Virus record (IMG/VR): IMGVR_UViG_2534682222_000006
Coordinates: 1 to 21,128 of that record
Strand: one strand, 5' to 3'
From: a virus
Taxonomy: Duplodnaviria; Heunggongvirae; Uroviricota; Caudoviricetes
Length of the DNA stretch: 21,128 bases
Each line of letters starts with the position of its first letter. Within the stretch, counting starts at the first letter, position 1. The notes under the pieces are model-generated. The model saw only the letters and a program-made list of their open reading frames with translations. It did not search any database and was not told the DNA's origin. This document shows, in pieces, positions 8,003 through 20,557 of this stretch. The translations under genes and the position numbers were made by a program.

Positions 8003-8557
8003 ATGTCCATAAAAGGCCTTGAACAGGCCATAGAAAACCTTAACAGCATCAGCAAAACGGCTGTTCCGCGGGCATCGGCGCAGGCCGTTAATCGCGTGGC
8101 AAACCGGGCCGTCAGCCGCAGCGTGGCAGTCGTATCAAAAGATACGCGCGTACCGCGAAAACTGGTAAAGCAACGCGCCAGGGTGAAGCGTGCGACGGTC
8201 AATAGACCTCGTGCACTTATCCGGGTAAACCGGGGAAATTTACCGGCCATTAAACTCGGTACCGCAAGCGTGCGACTTTCCCGCAGAAAACGGGACAAGA
8301 AAGGGGCCAACAGCGTTCTGCGCATAGGGCCATTTCGTTTTCCGGGCGGCTTTATCCAGCAACTTAAAAATGGTCGCTGGCATGTCATGAGGCGGACTTC
8401 AAAACCTCGTTACCCCATTGAAGTGGTCAGCATCCCGCTGGCAGCTCCATTAACTACGGCATTTAAAGAAGAACTGCCGAAGCTCATGGAGTCAGATATG
8501 CCCAAAGAGCTCCGGGCATCCCTTACCAACCAACTCAGGTTAATTCTGACACGATGA
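8003..8557 (+). CDS. Z: tail completion protein gpZ
   Basis: 184-aa basic protein in the lambda Z position (lambda Z 192 aa); AAGGAG RBS; 4-nt overlap with downstream U. Confidence 0.85.
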   Translation: MSIKGLEQAIENLNSISKTAVPRASAQAVNRVANRAVSRSVAVVSKDTRVPRKLVKQRARVKRATVNRPRALIRVNRGNLPAIKLGTASVRLSRRKRDKKGANSVLRIGPFRFPGGFIQQLKNGRWHVMRRTSKPRYPIEVVSIPLAAPLTTAFKEELPKLMESDMPKELRASLTNQLRLILTR

Positions 8558-12984: not shown

Positions 12985-13332
12985 ATGACGATAGAAACAT
13001 TCCCCTGGGGCATTAAGGTTTCCAGCCAGCCCACCGAGGGAAGCAAAGACACAGTCAGGAAGGTTCAGTTCGGCGACGGGTACGCACAGGTGAGCGGCTC
13101 CGGCCTGAATGATGAGATTCGTACCTATGAATATTCCTTTTCAGGGGATCCGACTACAGCGAATGAAATTCACGCTTTCCTTCGGCGGCATAAAGTGAAG
13201 TCGTTTATTTTCACACCGCCTTTCGGCGATACCGCGCTGTGGCGTGTCGAGGCTGACACGCTCAAAAAGGTGGTTAAAAACGTAAAAGTGATAACCGTAA
13301 CCGCAACGTTTGAACAGGCATTTGCACCATGA
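12985..13332 (+). CDS. M: tail tip protein gpM
   Basis: 115 aa in the lambda M position (lambda M 109 aa) immediately after the tape measure gene; ATGA overlap with L. Confidence 0.88.
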   Translation: MTIETFPWGIKVSSQPTEGSKDTVRKVQFGDGYAQVSGSGLNDEIRTYEYSFSGDPTTANEIHAFLRRHKVKSFIFTPPFGDTALWRVEADTLKKVVKNVKVITVTATFEQAFAP

Positions 13333-14084
13333 GTCTTAATGCTGATTATCAAAAACTCGAGCCGGGCAATGAAGTCCGGCTTTTTTCTGTCGATGGCACA
13401 GCGTTCGGTATGTCAGATGTACTCCGCTTCCACGCACATAATATCGCGCATACCCCGGAAGAGATTGAGGCTGCAGGCGGGGATGAGAATAAACTTCCGG
13501 CGAAGTCCATCTGGTGGCAGGGGGAGGAGTATAAAGCCTGGCCGTGTCAGATTGAGGGGATCGAGGCTTCAACCTCGGGAAGTAGTGCCCAGCCAAAACT
13601 TTCGGTTGCTAACCTCGACAGTTCGATCACCGCGCTTTGCCTGGCTTACGACGATATGCTGCAGGCGAAGGTGACGATACATGACACCATTGGTAAGTAT
13701 CTCGATGCGAGAAACTTCACCGGAGGCAATCCGACAGCCGATCCGACCCAGGAGAAGCTGAAGGTTTTCTACATCGATGCAAAGAGCAGTGAAACCAATG
13801 AAGTTGTTGAGTTCACACTATCCAGCCCTATGGATCTGCAGGGGCTGATGATACCTACCCGCCAGCTTCATTCTCTGTGCACATGGTGCATCCGGAACAA
13901 GTACCGAACCGGCGACGGCTGCGACTATGCTGGTACGCGCTATTTCGACAAAAACAACAACCCGGTAAGCGATCCGTCGCTGGATGAATGCAACGGTACG
14001 TTGGCAGCATGTGAGCTACGTTTTGGCAAAGGTAATGAGTTATCGCATGGCGGATTCGTTGGAACGTCGTTGATCAGGAGCTGA
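13329..14084 (+). CDS. L: tail tip protein gpL (Cys-rich C-terminal region)
   Basis: 251 aa (lambda L 232 aa); C-terminal Cys cluster (CTWC..., DGCDYAG, DECNGTLAACELRFGKGNELSHGGF) reminiscent of the lambda L C-terminus. Confidence 0.88.
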   Translation: MSLNADYQKLEPGNEVRLFSVDGTAFGMSDVLRFHAHNIAHTPEEIEAAGGDENKLPAKSIWWQGEEYKAWPCQIEGIEASTSGSSAQPKLSVANLDSSITALCLAYDDMLQAKVTIHDTIGKYLDARNFTGGNPTADPTQEKLKVFYIDAKSSETNEVVEFTLSSPMDLQGLMIPTRQLHSLCTWCIRNKYRTGDGCDYAGTRYFDKNNNPVSDPSLDECNGTLAACELRFGKGNELSHGGFVGTSLIRS

Positions 14085-14085
14085 T

Positions 14086-14796
14086 ATGCGTCAGAAAACC
14101 ATCGATGCGATTATGGCGCATGCTGCAGCTGAATATCCTCGTGAGTGTTGCGGCGTGGTGGCGCAAAAGAGCCGGGTAGAGAAATATTTTCCATGTAGTA
14201 ACCTCGCTACCGAGCCGACAGAACATTTTCACCTGTCGCCAGAAGACTATGCCGCTGCTGAGGACTGGGGTACGGTGATCGCCATCGTTCACAGTCACCC
14301 TGACGCCACTACGCAGCCGAGCGAACTGGATAAAGCGCAATGCGACGCAACGCTTTTACCCTGGCATATTGTGAGCTGGCCGGAGGGGGATTTACGCACC
14401 ATCCAGCCGCGCGGAGAACTGCCACTGCTGGAGCGTCCGTTTGTGCTTGGACACTTCGACTGCTGGGGGCTGGTAATGAGCTATTTCCGGCAAACGCATG
14501 GTATCGAGCTCCACGATTACCGGGTGGATTATCCCTGGTGGGAAAACGCCTATCCGGACAATTTTTATCAGGATTGCTGGTATGAATGCGGATTCCGTGA
14601 ATTCGACGGACCACCGAAACCCGGTGATATGGTGATCATGCAGGTCCAGGCCGATAAGTGGAATCACGCGGGAATTCTGCTGGAGGGAAATATGCTGCTG
14701 CACCACCTGTACGGACATCTGAGCCAGCGCGTGCCGTATGGGGGCTACTGGCAGGAAAGGACGATGAAGATTCTTAGACATCAGAATTTTATTTAA
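14086..14796 (+). CDS. K: tail tip assembly protein gpK (N-terminal MPN/JAMM-like plus C-terminal NlpC/P60-like domains)
   Basis: 236 aa; JAMM-like E....HSHPD...PS..D motif in the N-terminal half; Cys/His-containing C-terminal half (FDCWGLV...H.GILL...LHH); position after L as in lambda. Confidence 0.88.
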   Translation: MRQKTIDAIMAHAAAEYPRECCGVVAQKSRVEKYFPCSNLATEPTEHFHLSPEDYAAAEDWGTVIAIVHSHPDATTQPSELDKAQCDATLLPWHIVSWPEGDLRTIQPRGELPLLERPFVLGHFDCWGLVMSYFRQTHGIELHDYRVDYPWWENAYPDNFYQDCWYECGFREFDGPPKPGDMVIMQVQADKWNHAGILLEGNMLLHHLYGHLSQRVPYGGYWQERTMKILRHQNFI

Positions 14797-14843
14797 CAAA
14801 CTGTCACTGATACTATCGTGTAGTACACAGCAAGGATAACGAT

Positions 14844-15068
14844 ATGTATACAGTTGGGTTTGGTTGGATCTTCGTCGGTATTTTTATTGGGTTAATTCTC
14901 TGGTTTTTCATCAACCGCGCCAGCGTCAGAGCGAACAGGCCGGTTGAATTACTTGAGTCTATCGACCAGAAATTATCAAAAATAGTAGATCCAAACTTCG
15001 AGGCAAATAACAAAGACCAGTCGAAAGAAAACTACCTTGAAGAAGCAAGGAAAAAAGCTTGGCTTTGA
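14844..15068 (+). CDS. moron-encoded small single-pass membrane protein, candidate superinfection-exclusion protein (YebO / HK97 gp15-like)
   Basis: 74-aa ORF in an AT-rich insert between K and I, which abut in lambda; AAGGA RBS at 14833-14837; N-terminal hydrophobic helix (VGFGWIFVGIFIGLILWFFI) followed by NRAS and a charged tail; own terminator immediately downstream. The LILWFFINRAS motif is what I recall for E. coli YebO and HK97 gp15 (from memory, unverified). Confidence 0.6.
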   Translation: MYTVGFGWIFVGIFIGLILWFFINRASVRANRPVELLESIDQKLSKIVDPNFEANNKDQSKENYLEEARKKAWL

Positions 15069-15083
15069 GAGCGTAAATTAACA

Positions 15084-15106
15084 AACCACCTACGGGTGGT
15101 TTTTTT
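15084..15106 (+). terminator. intrinsic terminator downstream of the moron ORF
   Basis: Stem AACCACC (15084-15090) / GGTGGTT (15095-15101), loop TACG, T tract 15100-15106. Confidence 0.65.
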
Positions 15107-15117
15107 ATGGGGGCAGC

Positions 15118-15726
15118 ATGCAAGAGGTAATGACAAGAATTGAGCTAAGTGGCGTGCTAGCTAAGACATATGGAAGGGTTCATCACCGTCTGGTTCGCAC
15201 TACTGCTGAAGCCATTAATGCACTCGCGAAAACCATCAATGGATTCGAGAAATTCTTAAACACAAGCAAGGCCAGAGGGCTGACGTATGCCGTTTATAGA
15301 GATAAAAAGAATATTGGCGTTGATGATCTCGGCTTTCCCGTCACCGGCGAAGTGATCCGGATTGTCCCTGTAGTAATAGGGAGTAAAAAGGCTGGTCTTT
15401 TGCAGACGATCTTGGGGGCCGTGCTTATTACTGCTGCTGTGTTGACTGGACCCGGCGGTATTGGCGCTGCTTTCGCTGCTGGTGGATTGACGGGGTTTGC
15501 TGCTGCCACTGGTGCCTCGTTGGTCCTCGGTGGGGTTATTCAGCTGCTTTCACCGCAGCCATCAGGCATAGCCAGTAAACAAAGCGCAGATAACCGTGCA
15601 TCGTATGCGTTTGGCGGGGTAACCAACACTGCAGCGCAAGGCTACCCGGTGCCTCTGCTTTATGGTAAGCGTCGAATCGGCGGAGCGATTATTTCTGCCG
15701 GAATTTATGTCGAAGATCAGCAGTAG
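15118..15726 (+). CDS. I: tail tip assembly protein gpI
   Basis: 202 aa (lambda I 223 aa); Gly/Ala-rich hydrophobic middle (GAVLITAAVLTGPGGIGAAFAAGGLTGFAAATGASLVLGG) and conserved C-terminal PVPLLYG.RR.GG motif as in lambda I; 5' half visibly AT-richer than the backbone. Confidence 0.85.
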   Translation: MQEVMTRIELSGVLAKTYGRVHHRLVRTTAEAINALAKTINGFEKFLNTSKARGLTYAVYRDKKNIGVDDLGFPVTGEVIRIVPVVIGSKKAGLLQTILGAVLITAAVLTGPGGIGAAFAAGGLTGFAAATGASLVLGGVIQLLSPQPSGIASKQSADNRASYAFGGVTNTAAQGYPVPLLYGKRRIGGAIISAGIYVEDQQ

Positions 15727-15745
15727 ATAACTAACCTTTTTTCTG

Positions 15746-15767
15746 GCCACCTTCGGGTGGCTTTTTT
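15746..15767 (+). terminator. hairpin plus T tract between I and J (terminator-like; near-duplicate of the element at 15084-15106)
   Basis: Stem GCCACC (15746-15751) / GGTGGC (15756-15761), loop TTCG, T tract 15762-15767; followed by TATGGGCGCA just before the J start. Confidence 0.55.
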
Positions 15768-15778
15768 ATGGGCGCAAT

Positions 15779-18700
15779 ATGGCTACAGATAAAGTGTTAA
15801 AAGGCCGCAAGGGCGGCAGCTCAAGTTCCCGAACCCCTACCGAACAGCCTGATGATCTGCAATCTGTAGCGAAGGCAAAGATCCTCGTTGCGCTTGGGGA
15901 AGGGGAGTTTGCTGGACAGCTCACCGGGAAGGATATCTACCTGGACGGAACAGCGCTGGAGAATGCTGACGGCTCCCAAAACTTCAGCGGGGTAACGTGG
16001 GAGTTTCGCGCGGGAACGCAGGCGCAAAAATATATTCAGGGTATTCCCGGTACCGAAAACGAGATCAGCGTAGGAACTGAGGTATCAAGTGCCACAGCCT
16101 GGACGCGCACGTTTACCAATACGCAGCTTTCAGCAGTTCGCCTGCGTCTTAAATGGCCCTCGCTTTTCAAACAGGAAGACGACGGCGATCTGGTGGGTTA
16201 CTCGGTCAATTATGCGATTGACCTGCAGACGGACGGCGGCACATGGCAGACGGTACTCAATACCAGCGTGACCGGCAAAACGACGTCTGGTTATGAGCGC
16301 AGCCACCGTATCGATTTACCGCAGGCTGGCAGCACATGGACAATACGTCTGCGTAAGATTACCTCTGACGCCAACAGCGCGAAGATCGGCGACACGATGA
16401 TGCTGCAGAGCTTCACCGAGGTGATTGATGCCAAACTGCGCTACCCGAACACCGCGCTGCTCTACGTCGAATTCGACTCAAGCCAGTTCAACGGCTCTAT
16501 TCCTCAAATTTCATGCGAACCGCGCGGCCGCGTTATCCGCGTTCCAGATACCTACGACCCTGAAACCCGCACTTATAGCGGTACATGGACCGGTGCGTTT
16601 AAGTGGGCATGGACGGATAACCCTGCGTGGATTTTTTACGACCTGGTTGTTTCTGACCGGTTTGGCCTCGGGCACCGTTTGACCGCTGCGAATATTGATA
16701 AATGGACTCTTTATCAGGTTGCTCAGTATTGTGATCAGATGGTACCAGACGGCAAAGGGGGCAACGGTACAGAACCACGCTATACCTGCAACGTGTACAT
16801 TCAGGACCGGAACGACGCCTACACAGTCCTGCGTGATTTTGCCGCTATCTTCCGTGGCATGACCTACTGGGGCGGGGATCAGATTGTGGCCCTGGCTGAC
16901 ATGCCGCGCGATGTTGATTACAGCTATACGCGCGCTAACGTTGTTGGCGGTCGCTTCACCTATTCGAGCAGCACCACGAAAAGCCGCTACACCACAGCGC
17001 TGGTTTCATGGTCAGATCCGGGTAACGCTTATGCCGACGCGATGGAGCCGGTATTTGAGCAGGCGCTGGTGGCGCGATACGGCTTCAATCAGCTGGAAAT
17101 GACAGCTATCGGCTGCACCAGGCAGTCAGAGGCGAACCGAAAGGGGCGCTGGGGTATTCTCACCAACAACAAGGATCGCGTTGTTTCGTTTGATGTCGGG
17201 CTGGACGGAAACATTCCGCAGCCGGGCTACATCATCGCCGTGGCAGACGAGCTGCTTTCCGGAAAGGTTATGGGCGGCCGCATCAGCGCCGTTAACGGTC
17301 GCGTTATCAAACTTGACCGCGTAGCTGATGCAGCACCAGGTGATCGCCTTATTCTCAACATGCCTTCCGGAGCGTCGCAGAGCAGGACCATTCAGGCCGT
17401 GAACGGGGAATCAGTCACAGTCACCACGGCATACAGTGAGACGCCACAGGCCGAAGCTGTTTGGGTGGTTGAATCTGACGAGCTTTACGCGCAGCAGTAT
17501 CGTGTTGTCAGCGTCTCCGACAACGGTGATGGCACTTTCTCAATCACCGGCGCATGGCACGACCCGGATAAATATGCCCGCATCGATACCGGAGCCATCA
17601 TTGACCAGCGGCCGGTGAGCGTGATCCCGCCTGGTAACCAGTCGCCGCCTGCGAACATCGTGATCAGCTCGTTTTCCGTGGTGCAGCAAAATATCAGCGT
17701 CGAAACGATGCGCGTGAGCTGGGACCAGGCGCAGAACGCTATCGCCTATGAAGCGCAATGGCGCCGCAACGACGGGAACTGGGTTAACGTGCCGCGCACC
17801 TCCACCACGTCATTCGACGTCCCGGGGATTTATGCCGGGCGCTACCTGGTGCGGGTGCGCGCAATCAATGCCGCAGAAATTTCATCCGGATGGGGCTATT
17901 CAGAAGAGAAAACGCTGACGGGTAAAGTGGGCAATCCACCGAAGCCGGTTGGCTTCATCGCTTCTGAAAATGTGGTTTTCGGCATCGAGCTGAACTGGGG
18001 ATTCCCGGCGAATACCGACGACACGCTGAAGACGGAAATTCAGTATAGCCTGACCGGTACCGAGGACGATGCAATGCTGCTGGCCGATGTGCCTTACCCG
18101 CAGCGCAAATATCAGCAGATGGGCCTTAAGGCCGGGCAGATTTTCTGGTACCGCGCGCAGCTGGTGGACCGCAGCGGCAACGAATCAGGGTACACAGAAT
18201 GGGTGCGAGGACAGGCCAGCATCGATGTTTCCGACATCACAGACGTGATCCTGGAGGAAATTAAAGACTCCGATACCTTCAAGGACCTGATCGAGAACGC
18301 GGTGGACAGCAACGAAAAAATTGCTGGCATGGCTGACGAAATTAAAAACCATGCCGACGAACTCGAGCAGCAGGCGAAAGACATCCTGGAGAACGCTGAC
18401 GGGCTGGCTCAGGCCGAAGTGAAGATCGACGAGATTTCTGTGTCGATGGACGGCATGACGGGAGGAGTGAAGAACTCGGCAATCGCGATTATTCAGAATG
18501 GGCTGGCGCAGGTGGTAAGCCGTCGCTCGCAGACCGCCACGAACGCCGGGAACAGTGCCAGTATAGACAGAGTGGATACTACGATTGCCGATACCAGCCA
18601 GGCGGTCGCACGCGCGCTGGTCACACTGGATGCAGAAGCTGGTGGCAATATCTCTAACTCAACGGACCTGACAGAAACTCTTGCTGATTTCACCCAGGCT

Positions 18701-20323: not shown

Positions 20324-20557
20324 ATGAGAAAACTGATTATCTGCATGGCAGGCGCTGTCATGCTTACAGGATGCGCTGGCGTAATTGAGAAACAGGAACC
20401 AGTTTGCAGCGGCACTGCAATCGTTGGCGGTCAGGAAACTACGGTTCAGATTTACGGTGTGCGTAAACAAAACAACCAGACGCAGTACCGGGCTGGATAT
20501 CCTTTCAGCTGGCGCTGGGTAAGTGCGAATACATTTACCGAAACAACCTGCAAATAA
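20324..20557 (+). CDS. small lipoprotein, candidate Cor-like superinfection exclusion protein
   Basis: 77-aa ORF with lipoprotein signal peptide and lipobox (MRKLIICMAGAVMLTG|C); a small lipoprotein gene between J and the tail-fibre gene is where cor lies in phi80/N15/HK022-type phages (established knowledge, sequence identity not verifiable here); no clear SD, so the start is uncertain. Confidence 0.55.
   Translation: MRKLIICMAGAVMLTGCAGVIEKQEPVCSGTAIVGGQETTVQIYGVRKQNNQTQYRAGYPFSWRWVSANTFTETTCK

Follow-up and report, generated by a model that had tools for sequence, protein, structure and literature searches.

Tail genes K and I overlap in phage lambda (K, 14276..14875; I, 14773..15444), and the question raised by the present locus is what the extra DNA that separates them here encodes, where it came from and what its product may do. 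The locus lies in a stretch of 21,128 nucleotides from a virus of the Caudoviricetes (IMG/VR record IMGVR_UViG_2534682222_000006). This whole stretch is referred to below as the window, and coordinates are those of the window unless another phage or locus is named. An earlier note on this DNA had described an AT-rich insert of about 320 bp between K and I, and had read it as a moron carrying a 74-residue open reading frame (ORF), with a Shine-Dalgarno sequence in front of it and a terminator of its own. The insert is indeed present between K and I, and each of these elements was found in it.

The insert and its signals

The features of the insert, from left to right, are as follows.

14772..14796, plus strand: AT-enriched, remodelled 3' end of K, which is the left junction of the insert (from comparison of the K end as protein and as DNA)
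14808..14816, plus strand: extended -10 promoter-like element, TGaTACTAT, 27 nt 5' of the ATG (from comparison of cassettes)
14832..14837, plus strand: Shine-Dalgarno sequence of the moron ORF, AAGGAT, 6 nt 5' of the ATG
14844..15068, plus strand: YebO-family ORF of 74 aa with an ATG start, the ortholog of HK022 gp20
15083..15106, plus strand: intrinsic terminator, hairpin AAACCACC-TACG-GGTGGTTT followed by a run of seven T
15109..15117, plus strand: GGGGG Shine-Dalgarno sequence (15109-15113) and spacer for tail gene I, which form the right end of the insert

The GC content of the region 14772-15116 was 39.7%, as against 53.4% for the window on average and 55% for tail gene K. Nucleotide homology to mEp237 and N15 is lost at 14771 and regained at 15115-15117, and about 345 bp of the window stand where these two phages have about 30 bp. 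At the left junction, the K protein of the window terminates as ...MKILRHQNFI*, compared with ...MKIVRYKDVMAGETCRK* in mEp237, which lacks the moron. Up to about position 14790 the changes in K are conservative (ILRHQN vs IVRYKD), after which the protein stops seven residues early. At the right junction, tail gene I begins with the ATG at 15118, while in relatives without the insert its ATG falls within the end of K; the segment 15109..15117 stands in for the K/I overlap of these relatives.

Because K and I overlap in lambda and in mEp237 (by 13 nt), and share 1 nt in N15, it is correct to speak of DNA added between adjacent genes. In the terms of the moron definition of Juhala et al. 2000, as summarised in PMC3594210, the insert is an addition between genes that adjoin one another in relatives (lambda, mEp237 and N15), its base composition is unlike that of the flanking genes, and it ends in its own terminator (hairpin at 15083-15102, then the T-run). 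It also has a conserved promoter-like element.

This element was recognised by comparing 18 representative gp20-type cassettes, that is, cassettes of the type of HK022 gene 20. They were anchored on the start codon for the comparison, their upstream regions being otherwise about 33% identical. The motif TGnTAnnnT was present 24-32 nt 5' of the start codon in 15 of the 18, where shuffled sequences gave an expectation of 0.38. From its position in the window, transcription is predicted to start near 14823. A stringent two-hexamer (-35/-10) scan for sigma-70 promoters returned no promoter site within 14000-16000. We take the conservation of the extended -10 element as comparative support for an independent promoter, which falls short of proof of transcription. 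The conserved element is new from the present analysis.

The hairpin of the terminator has 8 bp (4 GC) and a loop of 4. The HK97 and mEp235 records list a terminator at this place, and an equivalent hairpin with a T-run follows the gene in every single-gene cassette examined. A T-run followed by ATGGG before the next tail gene is also found in the HK97 gp15 cassette and at the loci L009, L080 and L083. The layout is common to the HK97 gp15 cassette and to gp20-type cassettes from Serratia, Pantoea and metagenomes: a short AT-rich leader comes first, followed by the ORF, a GC hairpin with a T-run, and the ribosome-binding site for the tail gene that follows. When the insert was searched against Rfam, only the terminator hairpin was returned, against an sRNA model and far below threshold (E 0.48).

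A second terminator-like hairpin was seen in the intergenic region between I and J (15727..15778), where GGCCACC-TTCG-GGTGGC (15745-15762) is followed by TTTTTTATGGG. It is closely like the moron's own terminator and junction, and its CCACCTTCGGGTGG core is that of the terminators of cassettes lying between tail genes H and M at L012 and L073. In HK97, HK022 and the prophages of E. coli MB06232 and VREC0761, this slot holds two extra moron genes (gp22/gp23-like). In the window it is empty except for the terminator.

The encoded protein

The 74-residue ORF was assigned to the YebO family by Pfam (PF13974) with a score of 43.5 bits (gathering threshold 27; E 3.8e-11), the match covering only residues 11-43 and positions 5-39 of the 80 in the profile. 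The PF13974 core W-F/Y-F-x-N-R-A-S-x-R-x-N-x-Q-x-E-L-L-E follows the transmembrane segment, with Pro in place of Gln33. Homologs have a precomputed PF13974 hit and bear the name 'YebO family protein'. HK97 gp15 passes the same Pfam model at 35.4 bits.

The earlier note had proposed a likeness to E. coli YebO and HK97 gp15, and had suggested BLASTP as a check. The search gave significant matches to both: 70% identity over 30 residues with authentic E. coli YebO (E 1e-12), and 41% identity over 44 residues with HK97 gp15 (E 4e-8). The likeness is real, as the Pfam score also indicates, but is restricted to the transmembrane and juxtamembrane core. Similarity to YebO ends at residue 43 and that to gp15 at about residue 49, and the C-terminal two-fifths of the protein is specific to its subfamily and resembles neither. 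As for the sequence motif on which the proposed likeness had been based, a 13-residue stretch (IGLILWFFINRAS) is identical in the window protein and E. coli YebO, but HK97 gp15 gives a loose match only (LIVIFYLLRFSTRAN).

Over its full length the protein matched phrog_5031 (3.2e-39; residues 1-74 on a 75-position profile). Two segments are invariant in this subfamily, the core NRASVRAN(R/K)Q(V/I)ELLESI and the C-terminal LEEARKKAGL, and both are conserved in gp20-type proteins across Escherichia, Enterobacter, Serratia and Pantoea. The C-terminal L-E-E-A-R-K-x-x-G-L motif is present in the window protein except for a Gly73Trp change.

Hydropathy analysis gave a single hydrophobic stretch at residues 5-23 (19 residues; mean Kyte-Doolittle value 2.36) and no second candidate, in agreement with the one N-terminal transmembrane helix proposed before. 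The flank on its N-terminal side has no charged residues and that on its C-terminal side has three Arg. By the positive-inside rule, therefore, the tail of about 50 residues would be cytoplasmic. An AlphaFold2 model of low confidence (pLDDT 66.9, pTM 0.30) has helices at residues 3-29, 33-48 and 53-72. The protein gave no meaningful match in NCBIfam, and a sequence search of the PDB returned only noise (E 0.49).

The ORF is a real gene under strong purifying selection. When it was compared with a relative 88% identical at the protein level, dN/dS was 0.06; in comparisons where synonymous sites were saturated, pN was 0.16-0.34. An antisense ORF of 66 aa (14813..15013, minus strand) was also considered and was rejected, as its frame is lost in relatives (40-45 aa at L010 and L084) and the substitutions fit the plus frame.

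HK022 gene 20 and its copies

HK022 gp20 (HK022_20, AAF30371.1) is annotated as 'moron gene product' at the same position, and 72 of the 74 residues of the window protein (97%) are identical to it. The DNA from K through the ORF to I is 96-98% identical in mEp235, HK75, HK446, HK022, HK633, mEp234, HK106, mEpX1, HK544, mEp506, ECP1 and HK97, and the K/I element is present in about 13 sequenced HK97-like phages. In the mEp235 record, the equivalent ORF is entered as 'similar to gp20 [HK022]', with the annotated terminator coming after it. Two complete E. coli chromosomes hold a 346-bp cassette identical to that of the window, and the element is carried by only 7 of 5,426 complete E. coli genomes. 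The identical protein is RefSeq WP_000288865.1, named 'YebO family protein' by PGAP.

The window element is almost certainly the YebO-family moron known as gene 20 of HK022, which can be traced through the HK022 record and the summary in PMC3594210 to Juhala et al. 2000. The insert is thus already known: it belongs to the original set of HK97/HK022 morons, and RefSeq labels the exact protein. The earlier note was right that its locus differs from that of HK97 gene 15, which lies between the chaperone and tape-measure genes. The K/I location is not a new placement, however, because the same element lies there in HK022, HK75, mEp235, about ten others and, as an amber copy, in HK97.

In HK97, the gene-20 DNA is found between K (gp19) and I (gp21), with TAG at codon 33 where the other phages have CAG, in an otherwise intact cassette (L001, 6061..6285; about 13560..13784 of the HK97 record). 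It is because of this amber codon that the HK97 numbering skips 20 and only the terminator is annotated. A supE (glnV) suppressor host would put Gln at UAG33 of HK97 and restore wild-type gp20, so that HK97 lysogens may differ in gp20 according to the host strain.

As to how the cassette came into the present genome, the block 13303-18385, which reaches from L into J and takes in the N-terminal three-quarters of the latter, was 96% identical to mEp235 (HK022-type). The remaining window is closest to mEp237, its head and tail-shaft genes being near those of mEp237, HK225, N15 and phi80 (about 90-95%). Since the entire block is mEp235/HK022-like, the cassette arrived as part of a larger L-to-J recombination block, and its independent insertion into the window genome was rejected. 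In both E. coli prophages with the identical cassette, the I-J interval holds two additional genes, which the window lacks; the idea that the window was taken from one of these two chromosomes was therefore rejected as well.

Downstream of J, the window carries a cor gene (20324..20557, plus strand), whose product matches, with 100% identity across 77 aa, the E. coli MB06232 protein that PGAP names 'phage exclusion lipoprotein Cor'. The target of Cor is FhuA, a receptor in the outer membrane. With cor at this position, the tail region carries a second, unrelated exclusion-type moron.

The tail proteins of the window were mapped onto about 50 related loci to place the gp20-type genes, which were found in three slots. 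The first is that between K and I. The other two are these.

Between H (the tape-measure gene) and M: L012, L016, L073-L075 and L081-L083
Between the chaperone gene and H, the slot of gp15: L009, L015, L079, L080 and L086

All placeable gp20-type copies belong to siphophage tail operons, where they share one orientation and adjoin tape-measure or tip genes, and none was found elsewhere. The K/I position of the window gene is typical of the phrog_5031 subfamily but does not define it. In Serratia-type and some other prophages, the K/I slot holds a two-gene cassette, in which the YebO-like ORF precedes another one, about 110 aa long and without a Pfam hit (L008, 2778..3110; also L014, L072, L078, L084 and L085). 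These cassettes have no hairpin directly after the first ORF.

Thirty-four species-representative genomes (L019-L052) match the YebO core only, with no tail genes nearby, and presumably represent chromosomal yebO. The window gene lies in a prophage tail operon and its product has an unrelated C-terminus, which sets it apart from orthologs of chromosomal yebO. Proteins that share only the YebO core (about residues 13-43) were also seen in Proteus and in other viral contigs (L017, L018, L087-L093 and L095), with tape-measure-like sequence some 1.5 kb upstream of their genes; a further phage-borne YebO subfamily may be represented here.

Seven phages (HK75, HK446, mEp234, HK544, HK106, HK633 and mEpX1) have gp15 together with an intact gp20, and five (HK022, mEp235, HK542, mEp506 and ECP1) have gp20 without gp15, while HK97 has gp15 with the amber copy of gp20. 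The window has no gp15-type gene, nor room for one at the chaperone/tape-measure junction. As gp15 and gp20 occur together in seven phages, they are probably not functionally redundant. Hybrid proteins were found, in a viral contig (L086, 2989..3222) and in about 20 Klebsiella phage records (e.g., KY271401.1, 26094..26303), that join a gp15-like middle (KQSAQIDLLIALAHKK) to the gp20 C-terminus YLEEARKKAGL. The hybrid genes lie in the chaperone/tape-measure slot. Hence, gp15 and gp20 are branches of one phage-borne lineage. The three slots, the routine co-occurrence with gp15, the hybrids and the unusual window allele described below are modest new points.

Proposed role, alternatives and known systems

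The best overall explanation, to which we give a probability of roughly 55%, is that the insert is a gene-20 cassette coding for a YebO-family paralog of gp15 with a role in exclusion, present in the window as an altered allele. The cassette would be self-contained, consisting of the extended -10 element, a leader of about 20 nt with the Shine-Dalgarno sequence, the ORF, the terminator and a fresh Shine-Dalgarno sequence for the next gene. The repressed prophage would express the protein, which would sit in the inner membrane as a bitopic protein with a periplasmic N-terminus of 4 residues, one transmembrane helix and about 50 cytoplasmic residues. From there, gp20 might interfere, like gp15, at the step where the tail or tape-measure protein of an incoming siphophage opens the DNA channel.

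The analogy is with gp15 of HK97. This protein is produced by the prophage and goes into the inner membrane; it keeps the genomes of HK97 and HK75 from entering while leaving receptors unaffected, and its specificity is set by the tail of the incoming phage (PMC3594210). On this analogy, the exclusion of incoming phage DNA by gp20 is plausible, at somewhat less than even odds. A literature search for the function of gp20 returned no experiment or paper. Neither overexpression nor deletion of E. coli YebO had any effect on HK97 (PMC3594210), and membership in the YebO family therefore does not guarantee exclusion.

The latter result fits a different role, in which gp20 is a lysogenic-conversion membrane protein that alters host envelope physiology as chromosomal YebO may do, with no exclusion of phages. 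The conserved core of gp20 is closest to YebO, to the point of identity in the 13-residue stretch, no PADLOC model matches gp20 or gp15, and the co-occurrence of gp20 and gp15 suggests that the two do different jobs. Such a role leaves the C-terminal part, entirely unlike that of YebO, out of account, as it does the finding that every placeable gp20-type copy sits, like gp15, in a siphophage tail operon. It also makes no specific prediction, and we consider it unlikely.

The window allele itself raises another alternative. Compared with the nearest intact allele (E. coli YPE10), it has exactly three derived changes, none of them silent.

14837: G>T at -7, in the Shine-Dalgarno core, changing AAGGAG (all other copies) to AAGGAT
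14940-14942 (codon 33): A>C, Gln33Pro; CCG here, Gln in all others
15060-15062 (codon 73): G>T, Gly73Trp; TGG here, Gly in all others

Every other intact copy that was read has Gln at position 33 and Gly at position 73, and the Gln is shared by YebO and gp15 as well. The Pfam score falls from 47.7 to 43.5 bits. Two E. coli prophages whose I-J region is unlike that of the window carry this allele too, which shows it to be a genuine, circulating allele rather than an artefact of sequencing. The chance that all three changes would fall at critical sites was roughly estimated at about 3%, three changes being too few for statistics. Seen together with the stop that HK97 has at codon 33, the pattern of the changes is suggestive of an attenuated or retuned gene, and we put the odds that the window allele is attenuated or altered in function at about even.

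A gene in decay would account for the same pattern. The element would then be inherited baggage in the window, its product inactive or not made at useful levels. Three changes that all strike functional elements, with none silent, would be expected of such a remnant in a family whose dN/dS is about 0.06; the fall in Pfam score and the loss of the HK97 gene by an amber at the very same codon also agree with it. Decay is nevertheless improbable in our judgement. The reading frame, promoter motif and terminator are all intact, AAGGAT is still a usable Shine-Dalgarno sequence, and three changes are few to build on. Moreover, the same allele, with its ORF intact, persists in three different prophages, and it could be functional.

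The least likely alternative is that the gene serves the phage's own late cycle, for instance in assembling the tail tip, ejecting DNA or timing lysis, and is expressed by read-through of the late operon. This would suit a gene always found in the tail operon, in one orientation and beside tape-measure or tip genes, and the Q-type antitermination encoded in related prophages would read through the terminator. A late function is nevertheless very improbable. mEp237, N15 and lambda build tails without the gene, and HK97 is viable with an amber stop in gene 20. The cassette differs from its surroundings in GC content and comes with a terminator and a conserved promoter-like motif of its own, and three different slots misfit a fixed structural role.

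Returning to exclusion by a gp15 paralog, a more specific proposal can be made only tentatively and is rather doubtful: that the gp20-type proteins are a second, functionally distinct class of YebO-derived tail-operon morons, marked by a cytoplasmic LEEARKKAGL motif, not redundant with gp15, and mobile among at least three junctions on either side of the tape-measure and tip genes. If this were true, gp20 would exclude other phages than gp15 does, or would engage another partner in the inner membrane or cytoplasm. The amber of HK97 and the Pro of the window lineage, two independent changes at codon 33, would then reflect selection, in some backgrounds, for switching the gene off or retuning it.

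In terms of annotation nothing is new here, and the remaining value of the locus is as an experimental lead. The published work on gp15 used HK97, the one phage whose gene 20 is inactivated by an amber codon. If gp20 excludes with a different specificity, one tail operon would carry two related, non-redundant blocks to entry. A natural allelic series is available in Gln33 (intact), amber33 (HK97) and Pro33/Trp73 (window).

Among known systems, the closest is HK022 gp20 with its phage copies (mEp235, HK75, HK446, HK633, mEp234, HK106, mEpX1, HK544, HK542, mEp506 and ECP1), in which the K/I slot, flanks, promoter motif and terminator are all the same. The window genome differs from these in being another mosaic, with a head and tail shaft of the mEp237/N15 type.

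HK97 gp15 (AAF31105.1) comes next. It too is a small PF13974 protein, in which the motif R(A/S)..RAN.QVE.L comes after a single N-terminal transmembrane segment. Its gene is likewise an AT-rich moron within a tail operon, has a terminator and is joined to the gene behind it by a T-run/ATGGG junction. The window protein resembles gp15 in sequence over its N-terminal two-thirds only, and its gene does not share the gp15 location. gp15 has 62 aa as against 74 and is missing LEEARKKAGL, and its gene (HK97 8203..8391, between genes 13/14 and 16) lies in the chaperone/tape-measure slot instead of between K and I.

E. coli YebO (b1825, NP_416339.1) shares with the window protein a single transmembrane segment followed by basic residues, as well as the identical 13-residue stretch. 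It differs in being encoded on the chromosome beside mgrB and not in a prophage, in its length of 95 aa, and in having a longer N-terminus and an unrelated acidic C-terminus. P22 SieA and the lipoprotein Cor, which exclude phages at the DNA-entry step or close to it, are likewise small, prophage-expressed envelope proteins that block superinfection (PMC3594210); they have no sequence relationship to gp20, and the likeness is one of proposed function only.
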